Shown: positions 34,859-49,573 of the stretch, piece after piece | Layout of the letters: every line of letters starts with the position of its first letter | Position numbering within the stretch: position 1 is the first letter of the stretch | IMG/VR virus record: IMGVR_UViG_3300033074_001348 | Coordinates: 1-64,000 of that record | From: a virus | Lineage: Duplodnaviria; Caudoviricetes | Direction: 5' to 3' (one strand) | DNA: 64,000 nucleotides | Translations under genes and position numbers: made by a program | Notes under the pieces: generated by a model | The model's input: only the letters and a program-made list of their open reading frames with translations | The model's database searches: none | Told to the model about the DNA's origin: nothing

Positions 34859-36189
34859 AAAAAACCATCACCATCTTTATTCTGCTCTTTGTTGCATACT
34901 TCGCAGCACAGAGTCAATCTGTCAGGGACGAATATTTTAAAATCGTTGGAAAGCCGACTATTGTTGCGCCCACATTAGGCTCTTACTCGGTTGACTTTAC
35001 CAACAAACAAGTTTGGCGATCCACCTCTAAAACTACCGCACAATGGACGCTTGAAACAGATACCAATATTATTAAAATGTACCTCGGTGGACGGGATGGA
35101 AAAGATGGCGCAGTTGGGCCACAAGGTCCTGCCGGTCGGGACGGAGTTTGTCCAAGTTGCCCTCCAACGAGCGGTGGTGGTATGTCATTCCCTTATAATA
35201 TAGTCGTTGGCACTGGTGATGATGCAGCTACCATGAATGCTGCTATCGCTGCTAACGTGAGTAACAACAAACCAATTTACTTAGTTGGCAATATAAATAC
35301 AGGCATTTTAACAGTTCCTAAAAATGCTTTTCGGCTCACCATAATTGGTTACGGGTCAAAATGGTACGGTGGATTAAAGCGCACTACACCCGCAAATAAT
35401 GGAGAGGCAAACGAATACATTGTCGCTCGCTTCATCATTGAAGGAATCGAATTTGTGGGAAGTCAAAATCAGGTCGCTTTGGATTTAGGGGCATCTTACA
35501 TGAGCGCATACCGTGATTTAAAGTTTGACGGATTTTTGGAAGCGATACATCTGAGATTTGCTCTGAGAACATTAATTGAAAACTGCGAGGCGGTTAATTG
35601 CGTCAACGGATTTATTGCAGACATGGGAAATTGGACGGGTGCGGATAATGCAAACAGTCAATCCAATCACACCACATTTACTGATTGCCGTGCTTATATG
35701 CCATCCAATGGTCAAGTGGCATACGGAATTTATGCAGCTTCCGGTTGCGTGGTTCGGGATTGTATCATTGAAGGATTTGTCGTATCAAAGGGAATTGATT
35801 TTAACGGTAGAAACTCCAATGTGGTTAAAGATTTTACCATTGAAAACGTGCATTTTGAATGTGTGAATGGTGCGACAACCGCATTTATCAACATAGAATC
35901 ATTTGCCGGTGGTACAGTAACTATTAATAAGGCATTTGGGCAACACGCTTCGATGTTTCTAAAAGCAAATAGCACATCAGGACTTGGATTTGTTGACATT
36001 TCCAACGTTCCGTGGTGGGTTGCAAAAGGCGGTAAATATTTCAATACTTCAAATATTACTTTAAACTTTAAATACAACGAAGCATTCAGAGGAATAAACG
36101 CCTCTATGTGGGAAGGTACAGCCCCACAATTATGCGGTGGAAGTGGATGCGGTTACAACCGTTACACCTACACCGATATACCCCGTTAA
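34855..36189 (+). CDS. signal-peptide + collagen-like + beta-helix (pectate lyase-like) protein
   Basis: MKKTITIFILLFVAYFAAQSQS signal peptide, Gly-X-Y triplets (GRDGKDGAVGPQGPAGRDG), beta-helix similar to the tail spike C-terminus. Confidence 0.65.
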   Translation: MKKTITIFILLFVAYFAAQSQSVRDEYFKIVGKPTIVAPTLGSYSVDFTNKQVWRSTSKTTAQWTLETDTNIIKMYLGGRDGKDGAVGPQGPAGRDGVCPSCPPTSGGGMSFPYNIVVGTGDDAATMNAAIAANVSNNKPIYLVGNINTGILTVPKNAFRLTIIGYGSKWYGGLKRTTPANNGEANEYIVARFIIEGIEFVGSQNQVALDLGASYMSAYRDLKFDGFLEAIHLRFALRTLIENCEAVNCVNGFIADMGNWTGADNANSQSNHTTFTDCRAYMPSNGQVAYGIYAASGCVVRDCIIEGFVVSKGIDFNGRNSNVVKDFTIENVHFECVNGATTAFINIESFAGGTVTINKAFGQHASMFLKANSTSGLGFVDISNVPWWVAKGGKYFNTSNITLNFKYNEAFRGINASMWEGTAPQLCGGSGCGYNRYTYTDIPR

Positions 36190-36224
36190 TTATCATACAC
36201 TAACCCCTCAACACCCCCTGTTAG

Positions 36225-36539
36225 ATGGCGTGGCGTATGTCAAAAGAAGCAACTGAGAAAGGAGGCGAATGGCTCTACCGTGCTGTCATGGCTGCGTTCG
36301 TCGTTTCTATGTGGACAAAAATCGACTCTATCGCTGTGATCGAGTCAAGGGTATCTACTCTTGAGCGAAGAACAGATAAGATTGAGGACGCTTTATTTGC
36401 TCCTGCCTTTGATCGTAAAAAACGCATGGAGTCGCATCTTCGTGAGACGGACTCTGTGTATAATGTTTACGTGGAGAATCTTAACGACTCTCAGCATCAA
36501 CTTATTTTGATAGACAGCCTGCTTACTGCATCTAACTAA
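36225..36539 (+). CDS. single-TM lysis-region protein
   Basis: One hydrophobic segment then coiled coil (IESRVSTLERR), upstream of holin. Confidence 0.45.
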   Translation: MAWRMSKEATEKGGEWLYRAVMAAFVVSMWTKIDSIAVIESRVSTLERRTDKIEDALFAPAFDRKKRMESHLRETDSVYNVYVENLNDSQHQLILIDSLLTASN

Positions 36540-36559
36540 CCATTAAAACTATAAAAACT

Positions 36560-36979
36560 ATGAAAACAATTATTGCAATTATTAAGGCTGCGCTCACAAA
36601 GTTCAGCATGATTAACATGACGCAATTTATCGGTATTGCTACCCTGATTGTGTCTTCGTGGCAAGGGGCAAATCTGATTAGCGCATCGGCTGTGCTGCTC
36701 ATTACTTCTGCACTGACGCTCATTCTGAAATTATGGCAAAGCACCAAAGAGCTCGTATCAACCGGCTATCAAATGGACTGGGCGGTATGGCTATCAGGTA
36801 TTGGTGGCTTGGTGATAGGCTTCGTTGATAGCTTCATTACTGACGGCAGCATTATGTCGTGGCTATTTGGGGATAAAGCGAATATTGCTTTAATGATTTA
36901 TATGGCCATTACGATCATACTCCGAACCGGCTTCTCTAACCAGTCCGTCAATTCAGTAAGTGCCCGTAAAGCACGATGA
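36560..36979 (+). CDS. putative holin
   Basis: 139 aa, about 4 hydrophobic segments, basic C-terminus, in the lysis cluster. Confidence 0.6.
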   Translation: MKTIIAIIKAALTKFSMINMTQFIGIATLIVSSWQGANLISASAVLLITSALTLILKLWQSTKELVSTGYQMDWAVWLSGIGGLVIGFVDSFITDGSIMSWLFGDKANIALMIYMAITIILRTGFSNQSVNSVSARKAR

Positions 36980-37527
36980 AGGGTTGGATTCCTCTGACCA
37001 TAACAGGAGTGGTAGCAATATTGTTCCTGTTATGGTACTTTGATCCAAAGGGTAGGTTTACCGAGAAGGTGGACTCAAGAGATACTACTGTCATCAATCT
37101 GCCTCCGGTATCCATATCCATTCCACCCTCTTCGGCTCCATCCATCATCTATCAACCCATTCCGGCAAACGTAGACTCTCTTGCTATTGTAAGGGATTAC
37201 TTTGCCATGCGATCCTATGCCGATAGCAGCGAGAACGATACGGTGAAGATTATGGTGTATGAAAAGGTAGGGCAGAACAAAATTATTGACAGGAGGCTTG
37301 ACTGGAAGTTAAAAATACCGATTACGACTGTAATAGAGCAGCACACAGCGTCAAGAAGGATGCTGCTGATTGGCGGGTCGGTTTACAGGGATAGTCTTAC
37401 CACAGGGCTTTATTTTAACGCTGCGTACAAAAACAAAAGGGATTGGATGTTTATTGGAGGATACGATCCTTTTACAAAAACTGGCATGGGCGGAGTGCTG
37501 ATGCCGATAAAATTAAGAACAGATTAA
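36976..37527 (+). CDS. putative spanin-like protein
   Basis: N-terminal TM, Pro-rich linker, C-terminal beta strands; between holin and endolysin. Confidence 0.45.
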   Translation: MKGWIPLTITGVVAILFLLWYFDPKGRFTEKVDSRDTTVINLPPVSISIPPSSAPSIIYQPIPANVDSLAIVRDYFAMRSYADSSENDTVKIMVYEKVGQNKIIDRRLDWKLKIPITTVIEQHTASRRMLLIGGSVYRDSLTTGLYFNAAYKNKRDWMFIGGYDPFTKTGMGGVLMPIKLRTD

Positions 37528-37540
37528 AACTGGGAGGGGT

Positions 37541-38023
37541 ATGGCAACAGACAGAAAGAAAATTATCGCTGAGTTTGGCGATCCGAGGGCAGACGAAAAG
37601 GCCTTTGTAAAAAAATGGATGGTGGTTTTTAATATCGGTAATCATTTTCCGTCACTACCGTTCAAAAAAGTTTATGTCAATTCGGTGTTGATACCACCAA
37701 TTATTGAGACATTCAAATTACTTTCCACAAGAGGTCTGCTTGGCGAGATCAAAAAATATGACGGCTGTTTTTTGGTTCGGTGCATCAGGGGTTATGAAAA
37801 TCCGTGTGTCCCATCTATTCATTCATGGGGCTTGGCGATTGATTTTAACGCATCAGACAACCCGCTTGGATTAAGCCGTGAGCAATGTATCAAAAAGGGA
37901 TTAAAGCCGTTCTCAGAGGCATTTTTTCAGGTATGGAGAGAAACAGGTTGGGTGGTAGGTTATGACTTTAGCCGTAAAGACGGGATGCACTTTCAATGGA
38001 CTAAGAAGTGGGACACCGCTTAA
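37541..38023 (+). CDS. endolysin, M15 family peptidase
   Basis: SIHSWGLAIDFN and DGMHFQ zinc-binding motifs. Confidence 0.85.
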   Translation: MATDRKKIIAEFGDPRADEKAFVKKWMVVFNIGNHFPSLPFKKVYVNSVLIPPIIETFKLLSTRGLLGEIKKYDGCFLVRCIRGYENPCVPSIHSWGLAIDFNASDNPLGLSREQCIKKGLKPFSEAFFQVWRETGWVVGYDFSRKDGMHFQWTKKWDTA

Positions 38024-38057
38024 AACCGAGAAGGTGTTTCTGAATGTGGTGAAGGGG

Positions 38058-38126
38058 TAATATCACGAACCTTTAACTGGTTGCAAATAAGCCTGTTGAA
38101 GATAAAGCTTCGTATATCTGATGTTA
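38058..38126 (+). repeat. 69-bp direct repeat copy 1 (attI-like anchor of cassette array 1)
   Basis: Identical to 44467-44535; identity ends at GTTA. Confidence 0.9.
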
Positions 38127-38135
38127 TACACAACC

Positions 38136-38879
38136 TTAAAAAGACAGCGTTCCAATTGAAAGTTTTTGACTAATTCTATGGATTGCTTTGTCGTAATAAA
38201 ATGTGTCTTTTTCAATTCCTGTAAGGTGCAAATTCATTTTATCCAATTTGTTTACCTTATCAACCGCCAACGCTATTGAACCACTACCAAAATGCGTATC
38301 AATGATTTTATCACCATTGTTAGCATAGTTTTTCAAAAGCCATTCATAAAGCTGTATTGGTTTTTCGTTGGGGTGTATGCGTTCTTGCTTTTCTTTCATA
38401 TTTTGCTGAAGCATTCCGTGCCATTTCCATTTAAACTTTCTTACCGCTGTTTTAAATGAAGTCCAAGCAAGCTCACAATCGGCAAAATCATTGTTCCCGT
38501 TTTCTTTATCCCAAACTATCCAGCAACTACTATCAATAGGTAATTTTGAAATAAAATGATTTGCACCCCAAACAATTTGATTTTTAGAAATTCTGCGTAA
38601 TTCATTCCAATATTCAGATTCAGGAGCTGTTAAATCATTTCCTGAATAAGCCTTATAATCTTTGCTTTTTGCCATTACGCTACGAGTGTGATTTTTTGAG
38701 CCATCTTCGCCAATTCCATACGGAACATCTACTATTGCTAAATCAAATTGTTTATCCTCAAAATCTCGCATTTTATCCAAGCAATCCGAAAGATATACGT
38801 CCAAAAAAGGCTGTGTATAACATCGGTTTGCCGTAATGGCGGTTGAAGTGCTACTATTGAGCTTTTGTGCTGTATTCAT
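38136..38879 (-). CDS. DNA methyltransferase, N6/N4 family (cassette 1)
   Basis: DLAIVDVPYG (motif IV variant), HPNEKP, IIDTHFGSGS (motif I). Confidence 0.85.
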   Translation of the reverse strand: MNTAQKLNSSTSTAITANRCYTQPFLDVYLSDCLDKMRDFEDKQFDLAIVDVPYGIGEDGSKNHTRSVMAKSKDYKAYSGNDLTAPESEYWNELRRISKNQIVWGANHFISKLPIDSSCWIVWDKENGNNDFADCELAWTSFKTAVRKFKWKWHGMLQQNMKEKQERIHPNEKPIQLYEWLLKNYANNGDKIIDTHFGSGSIALAVDKVNKLDKMNLHLTGIEKDTFYYDKAIHRISQKLSIGTLSF

Positions 38880-38948
38880 CTTTTCTACTTTTATTTAACT
38901 TTTGTACTAAATTGTCCGCCACTAACGGCAAGCCGTGAACCGTTAGGC
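38815..38948 (+). repeat. attC-like site E1
   Basis: GTATAAC...GGTTTGCCGTAATGGCGG / CCGCCACTAACGGCAAGCC...GTTAGGC. Confidence 0.8.
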
Positions 38949-38957
38949 GTAATGCCA

Positions 38958-39581
38958 TTAGCGTATCCATTCAATAGTTGGTTTGCCGACATAATCCTTG
39001 TCCCAAACATACCAAGCATAAGCAATCATACCGCTATTCTTCATTTTTACCCCACCTTTGTATAAAGTAACTCGTTTGCTAAATTGGTAAACAGTTTTTA
39101 GAGGAAATTCCTTGTCCTGAAACATCTCATATCTGCTCTCACTTTCCAACCAAACAGTTTTTAAAAACATAGCAATCTTCTTTCTACCTTGCTTTTTTGC
39201 TTTCAATACAAAGTCAAGTGCTAATTTGTAAGGTGGGTTTGTAACTATGTTATCAGCAACTAAATCACTTTGCAAAAAATCAAGTTGTTCACCATATCCT
39301 CTATTTATCAAGTCGGTGCTAATAACTTCAAATCCTTTGTTTTTAAAAACTTCGCTTATATCTCCTTCGCCACAAGCACATTCCCAAATATTTCCGCTAA
39401 AAACTTCTCGTTTCAAAAGTTCTTCTACTGCATAAGGTGGTGTGGGGTAAAAATCCTCCGCTTCACGTTCTCCATTATTTCTGCTCGAACCAACTATTGA
39501 TAGAGCTTTCGTGGAAGGCACTACGCCTAACACGGGTTTGGCAAAATTGCCGTTTTCGTTTTCAAATAAACTTTCTGTCAT
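38958..39581 (-). CDS. adenine DNA methyltransferase (cassette 2)
   Basis: DFYPTP, WECACGEG motif I, IVTNPPY motif IV. Confidence 0.85.
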   Translation of the reverse strand: MTESLFENENGNFAKPVLGVVPSTKALSIVGSSRNNGEREAEDFYPTPPYAVEELLKREVFSGNIWECACGEGDISEVFKNKGFEVISTDLINRGYGEQLDFLQSDLVADNIVTNPPYKLALDFVLKAKKQGRKKIAMFLKTVWLESESRYEMFQDKEFPLKTVYQFSKRVTLYKGGVKMKNSGMIAYAWYVWDKDYVGKPTIEWIR

Positions 39582-39650
39582 AATATCATCTTTTGTTTTT
39601 CAATTTAACTTTTGTGTTCGGCAACTTCGCCAAGCCCGATACCGTTAGCG
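39525..39650 (+). repeat. attC-like site E2
   Basis: GCCTAAC-A-CGGGTTTGGCAAAATTGCCG / CGGCAACTTCGCCAAGCCCG-ATACC-GTTAGCG. Confidence 0.85.
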
Positions 39651-39668
39651 GTAATGCCAACAGACACC

Positions 39669-40169
39669 CTAAAATGGCAATCCATCGGACGGACTTTTAT
39701 TGTCATCATAATTTATTTTAGGCAACCTATCAGGGTTATCAAAAATATTTCCATCTACCTGCATATCACTACCGAAATAATCAATCATTGGAACTAAACT
39801 GCTATGGTTTTTGTAGTAAGAATTATCAATGCACCAACATCCAGTATCTTTATTGTAAACAACAGGATAATAACCAACAATTTTATTTCCTTCTTCGTCC
39901 GTTTCTTCATCTCTTAAAAAATCGCCTTCATAAATTAAGTTGCCAGCCCTATCTGAAACCATTGTGCAAATTGATATTCCAGTAGTATAGCTATCTACTA
40001 AAATATGGTCGCCAGTTCCAAGTTCTTCATTATCTCTTACTATGAAGTTTTGGTTTACGCCTCTATCGCAATTATTGTATAAGTCGCCAAAAACCCATAA
40101 TCCGTTTGACTTTGCTCTGTAATGTGTATTTATCATTTGTTTAAATTTAATCATTTTAACAAGGCACAT
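39669..40169 (-). CDS. YopX family protein (cassette 3)
   Basis: WVFGDL, DRAGNLIYEGD, VDGNIFDNPDRL. Confidence 0.75.
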   Translation of the reverse strand: MCLVKMIKFKQMINTHYRAKSNGLWVFGDLYNNCDRGVNQNFIVRDNEELGTGDHILVDSYTTGISICTMVSDRAGNLIYEGDFLRDEETDEEGNKIVGYYPVVYNKDTGCWCIDNSYYKNHSSLVPMIDYFGSDMQVDGNIFDNPDRLPKINYDDNKSPSDGLPF

Positions 40170-40171
40170 AC

Positions 40172-40302
40172 CGCTAACATAGTGTTGCCAAAATGGGGGC
40201 AGAAGTGCATTTAATGAACATTTGTACTGTGTTCAGCAGTAGTGCTTTTAATGGGTTTTTGTGCTATAAATCCCCCACTTCGGCAACACTCGACCGTTAT
40301 GA
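40172..40302 (+). repeat. attC-like site E3
   Basis: CGCTAAC-AT-AGTGTTGCCAAAATGGGGG / CCCCCACTTCGGCAACACT-CGACC-GTTATGA. Confidence 0.85.
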
Positions 40303-40515
40303 GAAATGCTCAGACTGAACTTCCTCAATCAAGTAAAACTTCTCCCACATACTTTTTGCCCACTCTTCGGCTTGGTGTCTATGTTGAAACACCGCTATAA
40401 TTTTATTACTCCCAATATCCAAACGTTCTGCATCTGGAATGACTGCAAAAGCACTTCTCATAACAGCCGTTTGCTGCAATGGCGGGTTCTGTGGTAAATT
40501 TGATGTTTCTTGCAT
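40297..40515 (-). CDS. hypothetical protein (cassette 4)
   Basis: Stop TAA is the TTA of the GTTA core; starts in the E4 loop, alternative ATG at 40461. Confidence 0.6.
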   Translation of the reverse strand: MQETSNLPQNPPLQQTAVMRSAFAVIPDAERLDIGSNKIIAVFQHRHQAEEWAKSMWEKFYLIEEVQSEHFS

Positions 40516-40589
40516 TTTATTAAATTTTGTGGTTAAACGAAAGTCAGTGCTTGTAATCCGCCACTGGCAGCAATGCTTTTACGTTATGA
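40458..40589 (+). repeat. attC-like site E4
   Basis: TCATAAC...TTGCTGCAATGGCGG / CCGCCACTGGCAGCAA...GTTATGA. Confidence 0.8.
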
Positions 40590-40620
40590 GAAATTTTAAA
40601 AACCTTTCCCCCGCACCGTT

Positions 40621-41004
40621 CTAATCATCATCTTGCGTTGACAAAGAAAATGTTTCACCATCTTCAATATTCATAATTTTGACACCGCAAGAACCGTATT
40701 CAGCAATCCACATTGGGGTATTTTCATCCATATAAAAATCACCGCCTTTGTATCCCGTAAAAGTTTGTCCTAAACATTCATTTTTTAGTTGTTCAACCAA
40801 ACTTGCAACGGTTCTTGTTCCGCTTCCTTTTTCAAGTGCTAAATCTGAATAATATCCACGATATGAATGTGGTTCACATACGTTTTCAATTTCTTTGTCT
40901 TGTGGTAGTTTTTCAAGTTCTGAAATAAATCTACCAAGTGTCATTTGTGATAAAGAACGTTCTGCTCTCCATCCTTTGCTTAATTCATTAAATAATTCTT
41001 GCAT
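40621..41004 (-). CDS. hypothetical phage protein (cassette 5)
   Basis: MTLGRFISELEKLP...PHSYRGYYSDLA...GYKGGDF; start set at ATG 41004. Confidence 0.65.
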   Translation of the reverse strand: MQELFNELSKGWRAERSLSQMTLGRFISELEKLPQDKEIENVCEPHSYRGYYSDLALEKGSGTRTVASLVEQLKNECLGQTFTGYKGGDFYMDENTPMWIAEYGSCGVKIMNIEDGETFSLSTQDDD

Positions 41005-41052
41005 AATATTTTGTTTTTTAAATGCCCACCCTAAAAGGTTTTTAAAACTATC

Positions 41053-41146
41053 CCATAACACGGGTTTGGCAAAATGCCGCAGGACAGTTAGTGCTAAATT
41101 TCAAGTTTCAAGTAGCGGCACTTCGCAAAGCCCGAAACCGTTATGT
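41053..41146 (+). repeat. attC-like site E5 (94-bp class)
   Basis: CCATAAC-A-CGGGTTTGGCAAAATGCCGC / GCGGCACTTCGCAAAGCCCG-AAACC-GTTATGT. Confidence 0.85.
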
Positions 41147-41158
41147 GAGATTGCTAAA

Positions 41159-41377
41159 TTATCGTTTATAATAATGTTTTCTAACACCTAAACCTTCTGA
41201 TTTTAAATGCTTAAAATTTAATCTTTCTTTTAAGTTATCAAATTGTCTTGAGGTAATGCTGTGTTTTTTAATATCATTTGAATTTCTTAATTCATAAATA
41301 GTTCTTTTATTATATTGTATCTGTACTAAAACATCATTATCTTCTAATAATTTTTCTAATTCTTTTATTGTCATCAC
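41159..41377 (-). CDS. hypothetical protein (cassette 6)
   Basis: 72 aa, fills the space between E5 and E6. Confidence 0.6.
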   Translation of the reverse strand: MMTIKELEKLLEDNDVLVQIQYNKRTIYELRNSNDIKKHSITSRQFDNLKERLNFKHLKSEGLGVRKHYYKR

Positions 41378-41403
41378 ATTTTGTTTTAAAAACCCACAAC
41401 CTC

Positions 41404-41536
41404 ACATAACAAGTGTTTGGCAAAAAAGCGGGTTCGGTTATTAATTTAATGTTTGTTTTATATTTGAATGTTTAGTAATTAATCGGAAATTCCGTTTTTT
41501 CTTTCCGCTTCTTCGCCAAGCACTCGGACGTTACCT
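41404..41536 (+). repeat. attC-like site E6
   Basis: ACATAAC-A-AGTGTTTGGCAAAAAAGCGG / CCGCTTCTTCGCCAAGCACT-CGGAC-GTTACCT. Confidence 0.85.
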
Positions 41537-41908
41537 GCTACCTTTCAGACGCTCAATTTCGGAAAGCAGACTATCAACGATTAACAGGCTTTTTTCAACC
41601 CACTCAACAGGCACATCGTCCTCTAAAAATTTCTTATGGGTTTCAGTATAGTGGTCGTGGCTAATTAAACCAAGTGAACAAACCAGCCCTTTGCTATCAG
41701 GTGCAGTTAATGCCCAATGCTTCAAACTAAATTCCCTGCCAGTTCTTGAATTGACATAGGGCAATTCATAGCATTTATGCCACTTCCAACTATCAGGTAA
41801 TTGATTTCTGAGTTTCATAATTTCCTCTACCGATAAGGCAGCAGGTAACACGGGTTTGGCAAAATCGGGGCTTCCGGCTTCATTTGAAATTATTTCTTTC
41901 TCTTTCAT
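41531..41908 (-). CDS. hypothetical protein (cassette 7)
   Basis: Stop in the GTTA core; N-terminus ...DFAKPVLP read through the left arm of half-site E7. Confidence 0.6.
   Translation of the reverse strand: MKEKEIISNEAGSPDFAKPVLPAALSVEEIMKLRNQLPDSWKWHKCYELPYVNSRTGREFSLKHWALTAPDSKGLVCSLGLISHDHYTETHKKFLEDDVPVEWVEKSLLIVDSLLSEIERLKGSR
41843..41908 (+). repeat. truncated attC-like half site E7
   Basis: Left arm TAACACGGGTTTGGCAAAAT identical to E2/E5; no right arm found. Confidence 0.7.
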
Positions 41909-41919
41909 TGGTGAGGTTA

Positions 41920-42156
41920 TTATCTTGAATGATACGGCGACATATAAGGATATTTGTAAGTTATATAAGTATTAAAATCACAAGGCATGACACCAATAAA
42001 CTGCGTAGGTTGAGAATCTTCATACTTACGCCTTTTATCAATAATTGATGCTATTTTTGAATTAACACCCATTAAATCGCCATCGTAAAATCGAACTAAA
42101 ATATAGGGATTAGCAGCACACGCTTTCCTTAATTGACCTACTGTTAAAGTTTTCAT
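41920..42156 (-). CDS. hypothetical protein
   Basis: 78 aa from ATG 42156 (MKTLTVGQLRK). Confidence 0.55.
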   Translation of the reverse strand: MKTLTVGQLRKACAANPYILVRFYDGDLMGVNSKIASIIDKRRKYEDSQPTQFIGVMPCDFNTYITYKYPYMSPYHSR

Positions 42157-42205
42157 CTCATTTATTTTAAACAACCCCAAAGCCAGAACGATGGGGGTGG
42201 GTTAG

Positions 42206-42442
42206 TTAGTAATTTATTACAATTTCAGTTTCGGTAACTTCTTTTATTTTAGGTCGGGCGTTCCTTGCTTCAATTACACAAGGAACTAAAACCATCTCTT
42301 CATACCAAACATCATCGTTTTTATTCATATTAAATCCCTTGTATCTATTGTCAGCACCAAACAAAGTAATATATTTTCCGTCATATTCTAAACGGTAATC
42401 ACCTGCGTAATGCGGTAATATTGGTAGTCTTACTTCTTTCAT
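42206..42442 (-). CDS. hypothetical protein
   Basis: 78 aa from ATG 42442 (MKEVRLP). Confidence 0.55.
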   Translation of the reverse strand: MKEVRLPILPHYAGDYRLEYDGKYITLFGADNRYKGFNMNKNDDVWYEEMVLVPCVIEARNARPKIKEVTETEIVINY

Positions 42443-42495
42443 AATTTTAGTATAAATAACAAACCCCCAAGCCAAAGACAAGAGGGCTTGTCGGG

Positions 42496-42915
42496 TTAGT
42501 CTTCGTTAAAAAAATCTTCTATATTAGGATTGTTATTCCAGTTTTCGATCTTACCGTTTTCATCAATTTTAACAACGATATAATCCCCGTAAGACTCTCG
42601 ATATAAATCCAATATATTGGGAACATAACCGTCTTTTGTAAGAACGGTATTACCTTCTGAATCCAATAAGTGGTAAATCCCATCATCGCAAACTTTGTAA
42701 TGAACATCAGCAGTGACACCTTTCTTCCAATTTGTAATAATTCCAGAATCAATATCAATATTTAATTTCCATCGATCCATTTCTTTGCATGGGATTAAAT
42801 CGCCATGTAAATCATCGACTCCATTAATTGAGCCGTCTTCCCAGTAGCGTACACCTGCATCCACTAACAAGGTTTTAATTTCGACTTCCTTTTCGATTTT
42901 GATTTTTGCTTTCAT
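42496..42915 (-). CDS. conserved hypothetical phage protein
   Basis: 139 aa; VRYWEDGSING...VHYKVCDDG...YVP...YGDYI...IDENGKIENW. Confidence 0.65.
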   Translation of the reverse strand: MKAKIKIEKEVEIKTLLVDAGVRYWEDGSINGVDDLHGDLIPCKEMDRWKLNIDIDSGIITNWKKGVTADVHYKVCDDGIYHLLDSEGNTVLTKDGYVPNILDLYRESYGDYIVVKIDENGKIENWNNNPNIEDFFNED

Positions 42916-43031
42916 AGTAAATGTATAAACAACGAACCCCTCTAAGCCGGGAAGACAGAGAGGGGTTCAGTATGTGAATTAGGCTGATCGCCTGAGATTC
43001 CAATTTGGTGCATCTTCCCGGATTGCAGGGG

Positions 43032-43039
43032 CAAATATA
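43032..43039 (-). promoter_or_regulatory. TAnnTTTG promoter element (leftward)
   Basis: CAAATATA = TATATTTG on the minus strand, back-to-back with a rightward element. Confidence 0.55.
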
Positions 43040-43061
43040 CAAACAATTGTATAAGAAACAA

Positions 43062-43069
43062 TACATTTG
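43062..43069 (+). promoter_or_regulatory. TAnnTTTG promoter element (rightward)
   Basis: TACATTTG upstream of ATG 43084. Confidence 0.55.
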
Positions 43070-43083
43070 TAAAAAAAAATAAC

Positions 43084-44469
43084 ATGAAACTTAAAATCCT
43101 CGCAGCATCCTTTATTATCGGCTTGTCGGTTGTAACTTATAATGCAGTAAACTACGACCCCGTTCCATCCATTATAGAAGCACTCAGGGAAGGCAAGTCC
43201 GTAACGCTCGACTCTGGGGTGGTTTACAATTTTACGGGCTATAAGAACCTCCCAGTAACATCGGAATTTAACTTGAATGGGGCAACTATTAAAGCCGATT
43301 CGATGCTCCAAGCCGAATTTAATGACAACCAATACTTATTTTTATTGGATGGCGGCTACATTCATTCTGGAGCAATTATCGGCGCATCAGGCAAGGTGTA
43401 CAATGCTAAGGCGGGGTATTTTGGGGCTATTCAGGTAATGACGGGTGGTAAAATAAGGTCGGTAAACTTTAAGAATTGCGACAAATGGGCTATTCGGGTC
43501 TTTGGTGATCGATGGTCACATAATGACACAACCTTTATTACATCATGCGTTTTCGATTCAATACCTCGTGACGGATCGGGATATGGTACATGGAATCAGC
43601 ATGGTGTGGTTATAGTCGATTCCTGTAAATTCAATTTCCTGCGTCATGCTTTTGATTGTGGTAGTGAAGGTAACTTAACGGTAATTCAAAACTGCGAGTT
43701 TCGTAATTGCTTTTACATTCCAATTCATCAGCATCGGTATGTAGGTGATTCGGTCGGGGTTGGATTGACGGTGCGTAATTGTAAGTTTTACGATACCTAC
43801 ATGCCCCTTGATATTGGATTGCCGTTTAAAGGCATGAACAGAATTGATAGCAACTATTTTGCCGGCAACTATATTGGTCGCATGGGTCGTGATACGATAC
43901 CCATTGGCACAAACTATATGAACGGTAAAGGCATGATATCTGCTCCTGAAATTATTGGAAGAAATAGCTATAAGGTGGGCGAGAAAATGTCACTAAAGAT
44001 TGACAAGACTGGTTTTTGGAATAACGGTGTAACGAACAGGCAGACGACAACTACATTCAATTATCCAATGGTAAAAGTCTATAGCGTTCACACGGGTGGC
44101 ATTGCTGACACCATGACCGTTATTTGCTCTGATACGGGAATCTATACGTCCATGCGGGTTTTAGCAACCTGCGATATTGAATTTTGGAGTGGCGATAAAG
44201 CGGTTGGAGTGGTGAAAAAAGGAAAGGCGTATGACTATAAATTTTACTACTTCAAGGCGGATGTCAAGATCAAAATTAAAGGCAATCTTATAGGTGTAGA
44301 TCGGGCGACATTCAACGTGGCAGACGGTTATAGGGCGTTACGGGTTCGTACGAATGTCGGGGTGCTGCATCTTGATAATCTATGCTACAACGGATGGTAT
44401 GACACCTATGAGTTTGGACTTAAGACGAAGGTCAAGCAAGTGGGTGAGTGGGTGGAGGTCGGGAAATAA
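43084..44469 (+). CDS. exported right-handed beta-helix protein (polysaccharide lyase-like)
   Basis: N-terminal hydrophobic MKLKILAASFIIGLSVV, beta-helix repeats (ITSCVFD, VDSCKFN, IQNCEFR, VRNCKFY); stop TAA is the first 3 nt of repeat copy 2. Confidence 0.7.
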   Translation: MKLKILAASFIIGLSVVTYNAVNYDPVPSIIEALREGKSVTLDSGVVYNFTGYKNLPVTSEFNLNGATIKADSMLQAEFNDNQYLFLLDGGYIHSGAIIGASGKVYNAKAGYFGAIQVMTGGKIRSVNFKNCDKWAIRVFGDRWSHNDTTFITSCVFDSIPRDGSGYGTWNQHGVVIVDSCKFNFLRHAFDCGSEGNLTVIQNCEFRNCFYIPIHQHRYVGDSVGVGLTVRNCKFYDTYMPLDIGLPFKGMNRIDSNYFAGNYIGRMGRDTIPIGTNYMNGKGMISAPEIIGRNSYKVGEKMSLKIDKTGFWNNGVTNRQTTTTFNYPMVKVYSVHTGGIADTMTVICSDTGIYTSMRVLATCDIEFWSGDKAVGVVKKGKAYDYKFYYFKADVKIKIKGNLIGVDRATFNVADGYRALRVRTNVGVLHLDNLCYNGWYDTYEFGLKTKVKQVGEWVEVGK

Positions 44470-44535
44470 TATCACGAACCTTTAACTGGTTGCAAATAAG
44501 CCTGTTGAAGATAAAGCTTCGTATATCTGATGTTA
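44467..44535 (+). repeat. 69-bp direct repeat copy 2 (attI-like anchor of cassette array 2)
   Basis: Identical to 38058-38126. Confidence 0.9.
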
Positions 44536-44544
44536 GCCGCAAGC

Positions 44545-44793
44545 CTAAGCGACATCGTAACTAATAGTTAGGTTTGACATTGCCTCAATTGTAAAAAGCA
44601 ACTGACCTGCCACATCATAACCATTGTAAACTGTTATCGTAAGGTCGTTATGATACCCTTTGCCGATAGTCTTTTCTTCTTCTTTAATTTCGTGTATCTT
44701 ATCGCCAAATGCAGCATATTGGTACTTGTCGTTTACGGCAAAGTAAGTTGAGCCTTCGCCAGTTCCTTTTTCAATTGATTTTATTCGTTTCAT
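44545..44793 (-). CDS. hypothetical protein (cassette 8)
   Basis: 82 aa; similar to 3438-3653. Confidence 0.6.
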   Translation of the reverse strand: MKRIKSIEKGTGEGSTYFAVNDKYQYAAFGDKIHEIKEEEKTIGKGYHNDLTITVYNGYDVAGQLLFTIEAMSNLTISYDVA

Positions 44794-44821
44794 TTTTATT
44801 TGTGTTGTGAGAAAGGCCAGC

Positions 44822-44915
44822 GGCTAACAGCGGTTTTGCGTCAGGCGGCAGACAGTTGGTGCAAACTTGAAACATCCTATAAGCCGCCCGAACGCAAAGC
44901 CGCAAAACGTTATCG
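44822..44915 (+). repeat. attC-like site E8 (94-bp class)
   Basis: GGCTAAC-A-GCGGTTTTGCGTCAGGCGGC / GCCGCCCGAACGCAAAGCCGC-AAAAC-GTTATCG. Confidence 0.85.
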
Positions 44916-45245
44916 GCTATTTAGAAAATCCCAAAGTTCACCAGCATTTGACATTGGAATATTTTTACCATTATCTGTAACTTTTAAACGATAGTTTTCT
45001 TGTCCAAAATCTAATTCCCAACAGAAATACTCAATCCAACTTTGACCCATTGGACAAAGTGCAGTATCATTCATTGCGACTTGCAAAACTTCTAATAAAG
45101 CATTTTGCAAGTAATGATTTTTAGGTAATAGATTAGCTGTAAAACTTTCGGGAAACGCTTTGCCTAAATTTTCAGAAACAGAAATATCATATTTAATTTG
45201 TTCCTGTATTGCTTCAATTGATTTTATAAAAAGTTGTTTATCCAT
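44910..45245 (-). CDS. hypothetical protein (cassette 9, gene 2)
   Basis: Stop in the GTTA core; WIEYFCWELDFG motif. Confidence 0.65.
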   Translation of the reverse strand: MDKQLFIKSIEAIQEQIKYDISVSENLGKAFPESFTANLLPKNHYLQNALLEVLQVAMNDTALCPMGQSWIEYFCWELDFGQENYRLKVTDNGKNIPMSNAGELWDFLNSR

Positions 45246-45489
45246 TTTTATCTTCTTTTAAGTGGTTATATTGACCAGTAGCGTATTGGTGCAAGTTAGT
45301 TTCGTTGTATAGGCTACAAATACTTGACAATGCTTCTAACTCATCATTATTATTTTCAATCCATTCATCAATACTTTCTTCCTCATCAAAAGCATCTTTA
45401 ACAGCAGCCTTTACACCTTTTCTGACAAAGTTTTTTATTGCTCTTAAATCCGATTTTGTTAATGTTACATTTACATATTCTAATTCCAT
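45238..45489 (-). CDS. hypothetical protein (cassette 9, gene 1)
   Basis: 83 aa, overlaps the next gene's start. Confidence 0.55.
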   Translation of the reverse strand: MELEYVNVTLTKSDLRAIKNFVRKGVKAAVKDAFDEEESIDEWIENNNDELEALSSICSLYNETNLHQYATGQYNHLKEDKNG

Positions 45490-45531
45490 ATTTTGACATT
45501 TTAATTTTAAAGTTTACGACTTAAAAACAGC

Positions 45532-45662
45532 CGATAACAAGGGTTTGAACGCAAGTGGGGCAGATGTGATACTATCAACATCAGTGGTTCATTCATCATT
45601 TGTACTACTATCAACATTAGTGCTACAAATCCCCACCTGCGTCAAGCCCAAAAACGTTAAGT
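45532..45662 (+). repeat. attC-like site E9
   Basis: CGATAAC-AA-GGGTTTGAACGCAAGTGGGG / CCCCACCTGCGTCAAGCCC-AAAAAC-GTTAAGT. Confidence 0.8.
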
Positions 45663-45701
45663 GCAATAAAATTTTTAATAATTATTTTTCCCACCGCACA
45701 G

Positions 45702-45974
45702 TTAAAAGTTAGGAGTGTTAATTTTAAATGGAATATCTACTCCTAATTCCATCAGTCTCGACCTTGCGTCCCTTATTGTTATCTCCGCATCCGTAATTTG
45801 ATTTTTAAGGTTTTCGATTTCTTCTTCGGTTTGTATTTCGTCGGTTTCCATGTCTCCGCATCTTCTACATATCACAGTATCGGGAAACCACTTAACTGAT
45901 TCAGTACCTTCATACAGCTCAAATATTTCACCGCATTTCTGGCACGGTGTAGGCATTTCAAATTCTTTTTTCAT
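45702..45974 (-). CDS. zinc-finger + coiled-coil protein
   Basis: CQKC...CRRC then heptad repeats. Confidence 0.55.
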   Translation of the reverse strand: MKKEFEMPTPCQKCGEIFELYEGTESVKWFPDTVICRRCGDMETDEIQTEEEIENLKNQITDAEITIRDARSRLMELGVDIPFKINTPNF

Positions 45975-45997
45975 CTTCTCAATTTTTAGCTATTAGG

Positions 45998-46246
45998 TTA
46001 TGGTTTAAACCCATCCTGTCTTTCGCCTGTAACCTGAAAGTATTTACTTGGCTCAGACTTCAGCCACAAACAAAGCTTTACGAAGGTTTCCATGTCAAAG
46101 GATTTTCGGTTTTCTATTCTTGAAATGGTCGAGGCTGAAACTCCTGCAATTTTAGCAGCTTCACGGATTGTTGTTTCAAGTTCAATTACCCTTTGAGTTA
46201 TCAGGTCTTTTCGGAATAGGTCGTAGTTAAATTTCAGGTCTTTCAT
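45998..46246 (-). CDS. XRE-family HTH regulator
   Basis: TIREAAKIAGVSASTISRIEN. Confidence 0.8.
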   Translation of the reverse strand: MKDLKFNYDLFRKDLITQRVIELETTIREAAKIAGVSASTISRIENRKSFDMETFVKLCLWLKSEPSKYFQVTGERQDGFKP

Positions 46247-46249
46247 AGG

Positions 46250-46861
46250 TTATGGTTTGGGTTGTAGGGAATCTAACAATTTTTGAACCTTATCAATCCA
46301 ATCTTTACACATTTTAACAGCCCATCCCGGTAAATGCGTTCCTCTTTGAATTTTTAAGTGCTGTTCATGCTGATAAATTAATCCTTTTACAAACACACCT
46401 GATTGCTCTAAATATGATGCACTCGATCTAAAATTATCTACTTTTAAAACAGTGATAAATTCCTCAATTTCAAGTACTGCTTTTTTATAGTTATCAAGCA
46501 CTTCAAATTCCGTTGTACGCTTAATTAATTTTACGGATTCCTCCAAAGCAGATAGTAATGGATTTTCCTGCGAATACAGTTCTAATGGCACATATTCAGG
46601 CTCATCTATTTTTGCGTTCTCCTCCCCGACCATTTTCTTTAAAATCGCAATGCCTTCGGATAGGGGGAGGATGCGGGTGAATAGAGTTAAAGCTAATTTC
46701 TCATCACTCAACCACCAATATCTATTGTAAATGTCGAAGCCCCAAAAACAGTCAGTAATGATGTCGTGATGTCCACTTGCTTTTTTAAACAGAGGAATAA
46801 AAGCTACTAATTCATCTGTTGTACCGCTGCGCATGTCGCAGCAGAATGGTTGTGTTTTCAT
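46250..46861 (-). CDS. hypothetical protein
   Basis: 203-aa ORF in a coupled leftward operon. Confidence 0.5.
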   Translation of the reverse strand: MKTQPFCCDMRSGTTDELVAFIPLFKKASGHHDIITDCFWGFDIYNRYWWLSDEKLALTLFTRILPLSEGIAILKKMVGEENAKIDEPEYVPLELYSQENPLLSALEESVKLIKRTTEFEVLDNYKKAVLEIEEFITVLKVDNFRSSASYLEQSGVFVKGLIYQHEQHLKIQRGTHLPGWAVKMCKDWIDKVQKLLDSLQPKP

Positions 46862-47061
46862 GATTTATAAATTATAAATGTGAATAGGATTAATATTGCA
46901 ACTATACCCATCATCATCAAATTAACTGCGAGGTATCTACTGTATGAACCAAATTTCTGACCAAGCCACTTCCCAAAAGAGAATAGCGGACATGATAATA
47001 TTAAAATGATATATAAAATAAGCAGTAAAGCAAACTCAGCTATCAATAATGGTTGTGTCAT
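46858..47061 (-). CDS. small two-TM membrane protein
   Basis: Two hydrophobic segments in 67 aa. Confidence 0.5.
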   Translation of the reverse strand: MTQPLLIAEFALLLILYIILILSCPLFSFGKWLGQKFGSYSRYLAVNLMMMGIVAILILFTFIIYKS

Positions 47062-47171
47062 AACTTCATTTTTTTATCGTGTGCATAACACCATCCATCC
47101 AACAGTTTCGTCACGCCAAACTCCTGTAAATCCGTATGCCTTTCTACCTTTTGGAACTTTAATTTTCTTGC

Positions 47172-47378
47172 TCATACCCTCCCTTTCCTCCTCCCTTTAT
47201 TTATCATTCTCACAATACGGCACTCGCTCAACCCTGTGAGTTCTGATATTTTCCATACGTCCTCCATTCGGATTCTTCCGGGGTCTTCAAAAAGTCGGTA
47301 AACTTGCCTCCTTGAAACTTTAAGTTCTTTGGCAAACTGGTTTATGGTGAGCTGCTTTGTTATGAATTTTTTGAGCAT
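47172..47378 (-). CDS. HTH DNA-binding protein
   Basis: TINQFAKELKVSRRQVYRLFED. Confidence 0.7.
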   Translation of the reverse strand: MLKKFITKQLTINQFAKELKVSRRQVYRLFEDPGRIRMEDVWKISELTGLSECRIVRMINKGRRKGRV

Positions 47379-47382
47379 AGGG

Positions 47383-48114
47383 TTAATAATTTTTAGCCAG
47401 TTGATTTATTACTTCTGATCCGTAAGCGTTTTTGGTAAGATTAATAAATTTGTGTACAGTCATTTTATCGCTCAGGTCGATGTCATGCTCTTTTATGAAA
47501 TTATCTTTCCCAATAGAACAACTTCCCGTCAAAGTGGTGTGCCACTTATAAAACTCAGATGCTAAATATTCGTCCGTTCCATTAAATTGCGCAATAAAAT
47601 CAGCAATTCGATCTTCAAGTGGGCGATTCTCATTATACTTCTGTTGAGCCTCCGAAATTGCTTTTTCTATTGTTTCCCCATGCGCAAAGAAATTACCTAC
47701 TTTGGCGATATAGCAGTCTTGTAAGGTCAAATCACTTTTAATGATTGCACCTTTAGCAACTTGCCCCTTTACAGAATAAATAATAGTTGGAACGCCATCA
47801 ATGTAATGAACGGGATAGTTGGTGTATTTTTTTAAGTCGTAACCGTCACCGGAACCGTAACCGGAACCGGAACCGTCACCGGAACCGTAACCGTAACCGG
47901 AACCGGAACCGTAACCGTCACCGTAACCGTCACCGGAACCGTCACCGGAACCGTAACCGTAACCGTCACCGGAACCGTCACCGGAACCGTCACCGGAACC
48001 GTAACCGGAACCGGAACCGTAACCGTCACCGTAACCGTCACCGGAACCGTAACCGGAACCGTAACCGGAACCGTCACCGTCACTTACTTTCAAAAACTCT
48101 GTTATTGCTTCCAT
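47383..48114 (-). CDS. (S/Y/D)-Gly repeat phage protein
   Basis: Start at ATG 48114; GDGSGYG repeats then WHTTLTGSC C-terminal domain. Confidence 0.7.
   Translation of the reverse strand: MEAITEFLKVSDGDGSGYGSGYGSGDGYGDGYGSGSGYGSGDGSGDGSGDGYGYGSGDGSGDGYGDGYGSGSGYGYGSGDGSGSGYGSGDGYDLKKYTNYPVHYIDGVPTIIYSVKGQVAKGAIIKSDLTLQDCYIAKVGNFFAHGETIEKAISEAQQKYNENRPLEDRIADFIAQFNGTDEYLASEFYKWHTTLTGSCSIGKDNFIKEHDIDLSDKMTVHKFINLTKNAYGSEVINQLAKNY
47839..48084 (-). repeat. in-frame 6-bp tandem repeat (~41 units)
   Basis: Units GTAACC/GTCACC/GGAACC on +, encoding YG/DG/SG on -. Confidence 0.9.
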
Positions 48115-48386
48115 TCTTTTTGTTTTAAAAGATTTGCGGTTGCATTTGCGGTGCATTCAATTATTTGAATCGGGTGTGCAATTTCCATTTTTGGAACAGT
48201 TACAGTTAATCTACTGCCACTACCAACTCCTGATTGGCTAATTTGCTCTACAGCAGCAGCACCTTCCCAGTAATGAATTTTACGCACATTTTTCATAATA
48301 ACAGACTTTTCTGTCTTAGATTCAATTTGACCAAAGAACACTCCGGCTCTATCGGCTCTTACAATGTAGTAGTTTTCGTTTTCCAT
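48102..48386 (-). CDS. conserved small phage protein (DUF6948-like)
   Basis: YIVRADRAGVFFG...RKIHYWEGAA; family name recalled, not verified. Confidence 0.55.
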   Translation of the reverse strand: MENENYYIVRADRAGVFFGQIESKTEKSVIMKNVRKIHYWEGAAAVEQISQSGVGSGSRLTVTVPKMEIAHPIQIIECTANATANLLKQKEWKQ

Positions 48387-48410
48387 ATTAGTAGTATTAT
48401 TTAGTTTGTG

Positions 48411-48539
48411 CAAACATATACACATTTAGCCCCTAAAACAAGTAAAAAGTAAAAATAAAAATAATCTGACTGATAATCAAAGAGATAATTTTATTTTTGG
48501 CAAAGTGTGTACCATTAGGCACAAATTAGTGTATATTTG
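48411..48539. promoter_or_regulatory. divergent promoter region
   Basis: TATGTTTG on - (48418-48411) and TATATTTG on + (48532-48539) at the strand switch. Confidence 0.6.
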
Positions 48540-48563
48540 CGGGAAACGAAAAAATAAAAGATT

Positions 48564-49562: not shown

Positions 49563-49573
49563 CCCTTAATATC

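Follow-up and report, generated by a model that had tools for sequence, protein, structure and literature searches.

Inverted integron-type cassettes with candidate start codons in attC-like hairpin loops of a Bacteroidota phage

Introduction

A 64,000-nucleotide stretch of a Caudoviricetes genome (IMG/VR record IMGVR_UViG_3300033074_001348, positions 1 to 64,000; referred to here as the window) carries a series of small genes separated by hairpins that resemble the attC sites of integrons, with several start codons placed inside the hairpin loops. This arrangement raises the question of which hairpin travels with which gene, and whether a recombination site could at the same time serve as a translation start. 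Clusters of attC sites in phages have been published before, with 17 CALINs reported and treated as ordinary integron parts; P12002L_attC1 of a Polaribacter phage was the only site there that IntI1 failed to recombine (Qi 2023, PMC9892861).

Results

The window contains two integron-type arrays, of seven and two units, with nine attC-like sites between 38.8 and 45.7 kb. Eight of these are complete imperfect hairpins of 88-128 nt that share one architecture (H1, 38818-38945; H2, 39528-39647; H3, 40175-40299; H4, 40461-40586; H5, 41056-41143; H6, 41406-41533; H8, 44825-44912; H9, 45535-45659; all given from TAAC to GTTA on the + strand), and the ninth, H7 (41846-41919), is degenerate, with a single arm left. 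Read on the - strand, the hairpins run from TAAC through a bulge of 4-6 nt, a stem of 3-5 bp, one mismatch and a long stem into the loop and then return to GTTA. Their DNA-fold z-scores range from -1.1 to -4.6, and the arm TAACACGGGTTTGGCAAAA occurs in 4 copies in the window compared with 0.02 expected by chance. All eight complete sites are bounded by TAAC and GTTA and fall within the 57-141 nt size range of attC sites; the full 7-mer consensus (R'' RYYYAAC, R' GTTRRRY) is satisfied by only some, so that a strict regular expression returns few matches. The fold departs from that of attC: it does have a spacer and a variable loop, but the spacer bulges to one side, with 4-6 nt facing 1-2 nt, and fold analysis found no extrahelical bases in the L region, which holds a single mismatch. 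An Rfam scan of 36000-50000 with an E-value limit of 1 gave no match. Provided that the sites count as attC, the arrays would classify as CALINs (a group of seven sites spanning 3.1 kb and a pair spanning 0.8 kb), as no PF00589 match, and hence no tyrosine recombinase, was found anywhere in the 77-kb phage.

Each array abuts a putative docking (attI-like) site on the + strand. Site 1 (38058-38123) ends at the G of GTTA (38123-38126), and its copy, site 2 (44467-44532), is identical to it through GATGTTA and diverges beyond. On the - strand of site 1, TAAC is followed by an ATAT..TAC motif that is also found at those ends of bacterial and phage arrays that adjoin recombinase genes. Cassette 1 (38124-38942) comprises an N6/N4 DNA methyltransferase ORF (38136-38879; Pfam PF01555) and H1, and its ends are complementary (inverted repeat I7). 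It is followed by cassette 2 (38943-39644), with a second DNA methyltransferase ORF (38958-39581; phrog_799, 3.9e-63), H2 and I22; cassette 3 (39645-40296), with a YopX-like ORF (39669-40169 or 39669-40154; Pfam PF09643) and H3; and cassette 4 (40297-40583), with a 72-aa ORF (40297-40515), H4 and I1. The hairpin of cassette 5 (40584-41140; ORF 40621-41004, phrog_12889, and H5) recurs together with its downstream flank in at least eight other viral contigs, the upstream neighbours differing. Array 1 ends with cassette 6 (41141-41530; 71-aa ORF 41159-41374 and H6) and cassette 7 (41531-41919; ORF 41531-41908), whose hairpin H7 has lost one arm. Array 2 adds cassette 8 (44533-44909; 82-aa ORF 44545-44793, H8 and I3) and cassette 9 (44910-45656), which carries two ORFs (44910-45245, phrog_28377, and 45238-45489) with H9. 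As first described, the stop codon TAA of three genes coincides with the TTA of a GTTA core, at 40297 (H3), 41531 (H6) and 44910 (H8).

Every cassette gene of both arrays lies on the - strand, as do all ORFs from 38136 to 42915. The initial annotation had counted ten - strand cassette ORFs facing the attI-like site; strand and direction hold, but the count does not, since only seven genes of array 1 are bounded by hairpins; between the ORFs at 41920-42915 there are short GC-rich stem-loops that are not attC-like. The classical order of gene followed by attC is not found: all nine units read away from their own hairpin and toward the docking site. We compared gene orientation with that in chromosomal arrays carrying the same arms, and the inversion first noticed in the window proved to be a property of the phages, the bacterial genes facing the classical way. 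Among 111 phage sites examined, the genes on both sides follow the arm strand in 58 and oppose it in 0 (58/58 of those with both flanks scorable), whereas at bacterial sites both oppose it in 51 and follow it in 3. The inverted layout recurs in many related phages.

Four cassette ORFs begin at an ATG within a hairpin loop, as previously noted: at 38879 (H1), 39581 (H2), 40515 (H4) and 41908 (in the loop remnant of H7). Their frames continue through the arms, giving ...ITANRCY..., ...FAKPVL... (cassettes 2 and 7) and ...QQTAVM..., while ORFs 3, 5 and 6 start outside their own hairpins. At 62 of 124 phage sites, compared with 8 of 101 bacterial sites, the loop holds an ATG whose frame runs on through the arm and stays open for 70 codons or more, and the long ORFs opened in this way represent about 24 unrelated protein families. 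The loop ATGs lie at -26 or -27 from the arm, and this shift of 1 nt tracks the two reading frames used. The GenBank annotation of the Flavobacterium phage filifjonk9-1 likewise places methylase starts inside hairpins. The proposal that the attC-like site doubles as translation start and N-terminal coding sequence gains comparative support from in-frame loop ATGs across these families; from the sequence comparison we infer that the loop ATGs may be used for translation.

The alternative that survives best, although we regard it as rather unlikely, accepts the cassettes and their inversion but lets translation start just downstream of the hairpins, for example at TTG 38804, GTG 39533 or 39521, ATG 40461 or ATG 41818, leaving the loop ATGs unused or as short coupling leaders. 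The profile homology of both methylases would fit it, beginning at about residue 25-29, past the hairpin-encoded part, and the N-terminal extensions that the hairpins encode lie outside the conserved protein folds, which speaks against the loop starts. For cassette 1 it is correct that no other ATG precedes the conserved region; that statement passes over TTG 38804, which is residue 26 of ORF1, close to the start of PHROG methylase homology at residue 28-29. In ORF4, a second ATG (40461) lies within the R box and could also serve as a start. In a locus elsewhere (L247), the loop ATG of a hairpin of the same H1 type opens just a 38-codon leader ORF overlapping the ATG of the next gene, so that a loop ATG is not always fused to a gene. 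In H2, a mini-ORF of 3 codons that begins at ATG 39589 overlaps the ATG at 39581. Against this reading, by chance alone most such frames would be closed, yet among sites having a loop ATG the frame stays open for at least 70 codons in 62 of 89 phage sites compared with 8 of 89 bacterial sites; the number of unrelated families and the match between the two ATG positions and the two frames likewise argue for use of the loop start.

Related loci delimit the mobile unit. Between the Flavobacterium phages filifjonk9-1 and mumin6-1, the indels are whole units of a gene with its 5' hairpin, and their ends fall in GTTA / GTTATAAG. In pairs of IMG/VR loci, the hairpin and the downstream gene are kept while the upstream neighbour has changed in 106 cases, the reverse occurring in only 1; the break-points of these loci are sharply focused, at -3 to -5 from the C of the coding-strand 5' TAAC. 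Of 75 ORFs upstream of sites, 17 stop exactly on TAA|C, the others ahead of it and 0 beyond it, and no ORF of the window crosses a cassette boundary when the hairpin is assigned to the gene 3' of it, compared with four under classical polarity. A boundary at G|TT agrees with the break-point mapping, with the indel ends of the related phages and with inverted repeats I1, I3, I7, I22, I23 and I25, through which the start of a cassette is complementary to the stretch ahead of its own R''; a circular intermediate would be expected to have such matching ends. Judged from these sequence comparisons, a gene moves together with its 5' hairpin, and on the + strand the cut falls at G|TTA. This bears out the non-classical polarity proposed at the outset: the break-points map to the 5' TAAC of the coding strand (GTTA on the + strand) and not to the opposite end of the hairpin, the + strand TAA|C, where classical polarity would have placed the crossover.

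The site family extends well beyond this phage, with more than 120 exact arm matches in Bacteroidota genomes. In F. silvisoli, an array of at least 10 units, each an ORF followed by a hairpin, lies downstream of a gene for a 580-aa recombinase whose best NCBIfam match is the integron integrase (TIGR02249) and whose best PDB match is VchIntIA. Homologues of this recombinase are encoded within 8 kb of an arm at 15 of 120 bacterial loci and at 4 viral loci, and in the four viral loci and F. silvisoli the gene sits at the docking-site end of the array. The recombinases linked to these sites fall short of the TIGR02249 cut-off, and the part that would align to VchIntIA residues 175-245, the IntI-specific domain, is missing from them. 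The arrays are accordingly not complete integrons: the phage has no adjacent IntI, and the linked recombinases elsewhere are without the IntI-specific additional domain. By sequence, the hairpin arms are nevertheless common to the phage and to recombinase-linked bacterial arrays. As the phage itself carries no tyrosine recombinase, we infer that a host enzyme would act on its sites.

Promoters had been proposed at the far ends of the leftward blocks, and matches to the Bacteroidetes-type TTG-N19/20-TAnnTTTG pattern are indeed located there on the - strand, at 43032-43061 (TTG-N19-TATATTTG), ahead of the block terminating in array 1, and at 48411-48441, ahead of the one terminating in array 2. 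A regular-expression scan yielded 18 matches in the genome compared with 5.5 in shuffles; inside the arrays, TTG-N17-21-TAnnTTTG had no match on the - strand, and the sole match within a hairpin (40471-40502) is on the + strand. Sigma-70-type matches did not exceed the shuffle level.

In T4-type phages, promoter-early stem-loops (PeSL) are mobile regulatory cassettes with promoters that are thought to use homologous recombination. By analogy, the hairpins could be RNA or DNA regulatory modules (mRNA stabilisers, processing sites or translation enhancers) moved by homologous or microhomology recombination and no site-specific recombinase. PeSL are similar in that they, too, are stem-loops placed at the 5' end of small accessory genes and border shuffled modules; the hairpins here do lie in gene 5' leaders, their highly conserved arms could act as portable homology, and no site-specific tyrosine recombinase was found in the Muminvirus phages either. 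We nonetheless hold such an origin to be distinctly improbable. The indel ends share only 4-8 nt (GTTA / GTTATAAG) with an otherwise unrelated docking site, the break-points are focused on TAAC, both ends of each cassette are complementary, and the same arms form arrays beside genes for IntI/Xer-like recombinases, both in bacteria and in four viral contigs. Unlike PeSL, moreover, the hairpins have integron-type R boxes and carry no Bacteroidetes promoter on the gene strand that could drive the downstream gene.

Classical polarity, in which the hairpin would belong to the gene upstream on the - strand, insertion would occur at the right-hand end and the hairpin ORF starts would be annotation artefacts, is already disfavoured and in our estimate very unlikely: automated tools orient the similar P12002L_attC1 in this way (primer orientation, supplement of PMC9892861) and, of the two arms, the longer is the 5' one on the - strand, which matches the top strand of a classical attC, but the 106:1 linkage and the Muminvirus indels point the other way, the left ends of both arrays share an identical docking sequence adjoined elsewhere by the recombinase gene, and four ORFs would straddle cassette boundaries.

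Discussion

We consider it probable that the arrays consist of inverted phage cassettes with the hairpin 5' of the gene, mobilised by Xer/IntI-like recombination, transcribed from far-end promoters and translated from loop ATGs. On the + strand a unit would read TTA, the - strand gene, TAAC, the hairpin and a final G; in the direction of the gene, its own attC-like hairpin would come first, followed by the gene, ending at or before the TAA of the TAA|C of the next site. Cassettes would come and go through site-specific recombination at G|TTA (+ strand), new ones entering at the conserved docking site, which lies 3'-most in a leftward phage operon. An IntI/Xer-like tyrosine recombinase would be responsible, supplied by the host for this phage; some related phages encode one themselves. 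With transcription from the promoters at 43032 and 48411, the newest cassette would be promoter-distal if the docking site acts as attI; the extra cassette of filifjonk9-1, which sits directly at the docking site, fits this idea. The variable loop carries an A-rich leader and an ATG, from which cassettes 1, 2, 4 and 7 are most likely translated through the 3' arm, yielding a hairpin-encoded N-terminal extension of about 20-25 residues.

In class 1 integrons, short ORFs in attI1 (ORF-11 and ORF-18) aid translation of cassettes that lack their own initiation region. There, too, a start codon in a recombination site feeds ribosomes into a cassette gene, by fusion or coupling; the attI start, however, serves only the first cassette, whereas phage cassettes may each carry their own start in the attC loop. 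Sedentary chromosomal integrons, for example the Vibrio cholerae repeats, share with the phage arrays the unrelated small genes between near-identical hairpins, the long arrays, the complementary cassette ends, the cut at G|TT and a tyrosine recombinase gene at one array end. They differ in the direction of the genes, in having extrahelical bases where the phage hairpins instead show the asymmetric bulge of 4-6 nt facing 1-2 nt, and in a recombinase that includes the VchIntIA 175-245 region. The previously reported phage arrays (PMC9892861) also combine attC-type hairpins with small genes, several DNA methyltransferases among them, in lytic phages without an integrase, and attC1 of the Flavobacteriaceae phage P12002L shows the same order of TAAC, bulge, stem and GTTA; gene inversion, loop start codons, a docking site and a link to Bacteroidota chromosomal arrays were not reported there. 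In the literature searched, we found no description of the systematic inversion or of the loop starts.

On balance we lean toward a wider reading as a 'mirror-image' integron, which would use the arms of host arrays and presumably the same Xer/IntI-like recombinase, with all phage genes, including that for the recombinase in those phages that have one, on the opposite strand, and with the loop evolved into a portable start and N-terminal 'head' fused in frame to unrelated genes. In the bacterial arrays of this site family, recombinase gene and cassettes point the same way. Were this reading true, phages would own a separate cassette pool with methyltransferases among its contents, insertion at the operon tail would spare essential genes, and phage cassettes captured by a host array would lie antisense to the host cassette genes. 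One point that counts against the main account is that a single hairpin core is found between many differing left and right flanks; the homogeneity of the hairpins needs an explanation of its own.

Attachment-site-like hairpins separate the small genes of the phage

The phage record spans 77,312 bp in full and was rated complete by CheckV; the window is its first 64 kb. A plus-strand run of structural and lysis genes ends with an endolysin-like gene (37541-38023), after which small minus-strand genes lie in blocks, separated by eight complete hairpins and one half-site. Among cultured phages, this region has its closest relatives in the Flavobacterium phages of the genus Muminvirus, in which arrays of the same kind are present. 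Read on the minus strand, the hairpins (H1 to H9) consist of TAAC, a bulge of 4-6 nt, a stem of 3-5 bp, one mismatch and a long stem, followed by a variable loop, the return strands, 1-2 nt and GTTA. The stem bases vary from site to site with pairing retained (CGGG/CCCG, GCGG/CCGC, GAGTG/CACT(A/T)), and the bases just after GTTA pair with those before the TAAC of the same segment (inverted repeats I1, I3, I7, I22, I23 and I25), as would be expected if the segment together with one hairpin had once been circular. Judged by G-T pairs, a bias towards the minus strand as the folding strand is mixed across the sites.

An Rfam scan of 36-50 kb with E up to 1 returned zero matches, so the sites are not covered by any model of that library. 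With a strict RYYYAAC...GTTRRRY regular expression and two purpose-built hairpin detectors, several true sites went unrecognised and false ones were called; the site calls are therefore based on manual anatomy, folds and the exact 19-nt arm, the conserved hairpin strand. The arm of the H1 type occurs in one other contig only. The initial annotation had counted ten inverted cassette ORFs; their orientation stands, but three minus-strand ORFs between 41920 and 42915 are not bounded by attC-like sites. Their spacers are short GC-rich stem-loops (AACCCC...GGGGTT) unlike such sites, so that array 1 comprises seven cassettes and array 2 two. The stop codon of one of these ORFs (41920-42180) immediately adjoins the TAAC of the degenerate hairpin H7 (41846-41919).

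The mobile unit comprises a hairpin and its downstream gene

The Muminvirus phages filifjonk9-1 and mumin6-1 are 99.6-100% identical in the regions flanking two indels, one of a single unit and the other of three, each unit being a minus-strand gene with a hairpin on its right, at the 5' side of the gene. The ends of the indels fall in GTTATAAG and AACGTTA, and the single extra unit is placed right at a site that has no hairpin and is otherwise unrelated to the hairpin. In IMG/VR, exact matches to the 19-nt arm TTTTGCCAAACCCGTGTTA number more than 120. Among these viral loci, to which the linkage counts refer (in bacteria one 118-nt hairpin type is near-identical everywhere), 106 pairs of sites from different contigs have the downstream flank and hairpin core in common and differ upstream, as compared to one pair with the reverse linkage, upstream kept and downstream changed. 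In 47 of the 64 pairs whose hairpin cores are near-identical, the upstream flanks diverge 3-5 nt ahead of the C of the 5' TAAC. Two independent comparisons, indels and linkage, thus identify the unit as the hairpin plus the downstream gene, in support of the non-classical polarity proposed in the initial annotation, and the indels and break-points together place the cut between TAA and C on the gene strand, which is between G and TTA on the plus strand. With boundaries drawn in this way no ORF in the window crosses a cassette border, versus four with classical boundaries. In a wider sample, the upstream ORF ends exactly on the cut in 17 of 75 cases, before it in the rest and beyond it in none.

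To describe gene orientation, we determined for every match to the 19-nt arm which strand is coding in the 450 nt to its left and to its right. Both flanks are coded on the arm strand at 58 of the 111 viral sites scored and on the opposite strand at none, versus 3 and 51, respectively, of 81 bacterial sites. The bacterial arrays thus have the reverse ORF orientation, and gene inversion in the phages is systematic. Relative to the hairpin, the docking or attI side does not differ between the groups; what is flipped is solely the direction of the genes, including the recombinase gene at loci that have one.

Hairpin loops carry predicted translation starts

That the cassette ORFs lie on the minus strand with ATGs in hairpin loops was confirmed with minor corrections. 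The ATGs are located at 38879 (H1 loop), 39581 (H2 loop), 40515 (H4 loop) and 41908 (loop remnant of H7), with the arm read in frame as ITANRCY, FAKPVL, QQTAVM and FAKPVL, respectively, while ORFs 3, 5 and 6, numbered by cassette, start outside their own hairpins. The TAA stop coincides with the TTA of the GTTA core in three genes (ends at 40297, 41531 and 44910), as had also been noticed initially. Other possible starts are TTG 38804 for ORF1 and ATG 40461 for ORF4, H2 holds a three-codon ORF overlapping ATG 39581, and the PHROG profile homology of both methylases (ORF1 and ORF2) begins at residues 25-29, past the hairpin-encoded part.

Across the sites collected, 62 of 124 in viruses versus 8 of 101 in bacteria have a loop ATG from which a frame of 70 or more codons runs through the arm. 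Such ATGs mostly precede the arm by 26 or 27 nt, and the arm is read as FAKPVL from the former and as FCQTRV from the latter position. With the hairpin-encoded residues trimmed off, blastp sorts the viral ORFs of 70 or more codons that lie downstream into 59 families, about 24 of which have the in-frame loop ATG. At locus L247 (767-1130), an H1-type hairpin near-identical to that of the window has a loop ATG opening a 38-codon leader ORF, the stop of which overlaps the ATG of the following gene. On this comparative evidence the loop appears to serve as a portable region for initiation, whether through fusion or through coupling, and the comparisons argue strongly, though short of proof, that the loop ATGs are used. 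Two Muminvirus genomes carry an annotated 34-aa 'hypothetical protein' wholly inside a hairpin (L001, 2733-2837; L002, 2321-2425), which probably represents a leader ORF or else an artefact of annotation.

Arrays are predicted to form the distal ends of leftward operons

Matches to the Bacteroidetes promoter consensus TTG-N17-21-TAnnTTTG number 18 genome-wide versus 5.5 in shuffled sequences. Minus-strand matches lie upstream of the two leftward blocks, at 43032-43061 and 48411-48441, which supports the far-end promoters inferred in the initial annotation. The same consensus scan gave no match on the minus (gene) strand within the arrays, hairpins included; the sole match inside a hairpin (H4, 40471-40502, plus strand) is antisense to the cassette genes. 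Intrinsic-terminator-like sites showed no enrichment. With promoters at the far end and none within, the arrays would constitute the distal ends of leftward operons, with the docking sites at the 3' ends of these operons.

The 66-nt docking sites lie in an 82-nt direct repeat at 38058 and 44467, the first 69 nt of which are identical, through GATGTTA, past which the copies part ways into the first cassette of the respective array. A 27-nt piece of the docking site matches no other IMG/VR contig, which marks the docking sequence as particular to this phage. At seven junctions compared (38058-38126 of the window, 1590-1680 of the Muminvirus genome L002, the Flavobacterium silvisoli attI at 8040-8110 of contig 13 (L244), and the recombinase-bearing viral loci L014, L032, L121 and L006), an ATAT..TA(C/A)-like motif comes within 2-6 nt after TAAC, most clearly in five; the resemblance is suggestive, and the motif could represent a common attI core. 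A lone plus-strand gene between the arrays (43084-44469, 461 aa, with a signal-peptide-like N-terminus and no Pfam match) terminates exactly at the second repeat copy, so that the 6.4 kb from one repeat to the other may have arisen by duplication or insertion of the whole block.

Relation to integrons

We file the system as integron-type cassettes, or CALINs, in phages, in a variant with inverted genes and predicted loop starts. It departs from the integron definition in three respects: the orientation of the genes, the lack of extrahelical bases and the lack of an integrase carrying the IntI-specific domain. In the integron model, a promoter-proximal platform captures promoterless genes that are all directed away from attI. 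In contrast, the phages use the same type of recombination site reversed, across hundreds of viral contigs, insertion would occur at the operon tail, and each cassette has its own predicted translation start inside the site. CALINs were described in virulent phages, including the Polaribacter phage P12002L with methylase cassettes, whose attC1, the sole site not recombined by IntI1, shares the architecture of the hairpins in the window (Qi et al., 2023; PMC9892861). In the literature searched, we found no description of gene inversion or loop starts. The DNA methyltransferase cassettes are plausible counter-measures to host restriction; if they act in this way, the arrays would offer lytic phages a concrete route for exchanging such genes.

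The same sites occur in Bacteroidota, linked to tyrosine recombinases

Among GTDB genomes, too, exact matches to the 19-nt arm number more than 120, nearly all of them in Bacteroidota (Flavobacteriales, Chitinophagales, Cytophagales, Sphingobacteriales and Saprospiraceae), and the 118-nt hairpin core is nearly invariant at these sites. In F. silvisoli, a chromosomal array of at least ten units, each a gene followed by a hairpin (L244, 6302-19580), lies downstream of and on the same strand as the gene for a 580-aa IntI/Xer-like tyrosine recombinase with an N-terminal extension of about 290 aa. The best NCBIfam match of this protein is the integron integrase TIGR02249 (221.7 bits versus a cut-off of 265) and its best PDB match is VchIntIA, in an alignment that skips VchIntIA residues 175-245, which we take to be the part holding the IntI-specific domain, the query having only 29 residues there. 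The first F. silvisoli cassette encodes a Drt4-like antiviral reverse transcriptase.

Of 120 bacterial loci, 15 have a homologue of the recombinase within 8 kb of the arm, with 34-44% identity in full-length matches, and each of the five genomes searched in full contains a homologue. The viral loci L014, L032, L121 and L006 encode short homologues of 267-294 aa directly after the last cassette, on the gene strand. The whole 77,312-bp record contains no tyrosine recombinase, and the enzyme acting on this phage would come from the host. Its serine recombinase (53042-53716, minus strand; 224 aa, short, with only the start of the 'Recombinase' domain) was rejected as the cassette enzyme, both because it is absent from annotated Muminvirus genomes bearing the same arrays and because serine recombinases use double-stranded sites as substrates. 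Together with a Gp3-like recombination directionality factor 2 kb away (50420-51199, plus strand), it may represent a decayed or unusual integration module.

For Bacteroidetes, IntegronFinder 2.0 reported In0 elements and a single complete integron only (PMC9024848). Bacteroidota may have a large integron-like system in common with their phages, one that could escape standard surveys; the recombinases linked to the sites fall short of the NCBIfam cut-off for integron integrases and are devoid of the IntI-specific domain. One bacterial genome (CP058707.1) has the 19-nt arm ten times, in exact or near-exact form, on one strand over 326 kb (3,556,648-3,882,406), which may be a very large sedentary array, and a recombinase homologue at 3.986 Mb.
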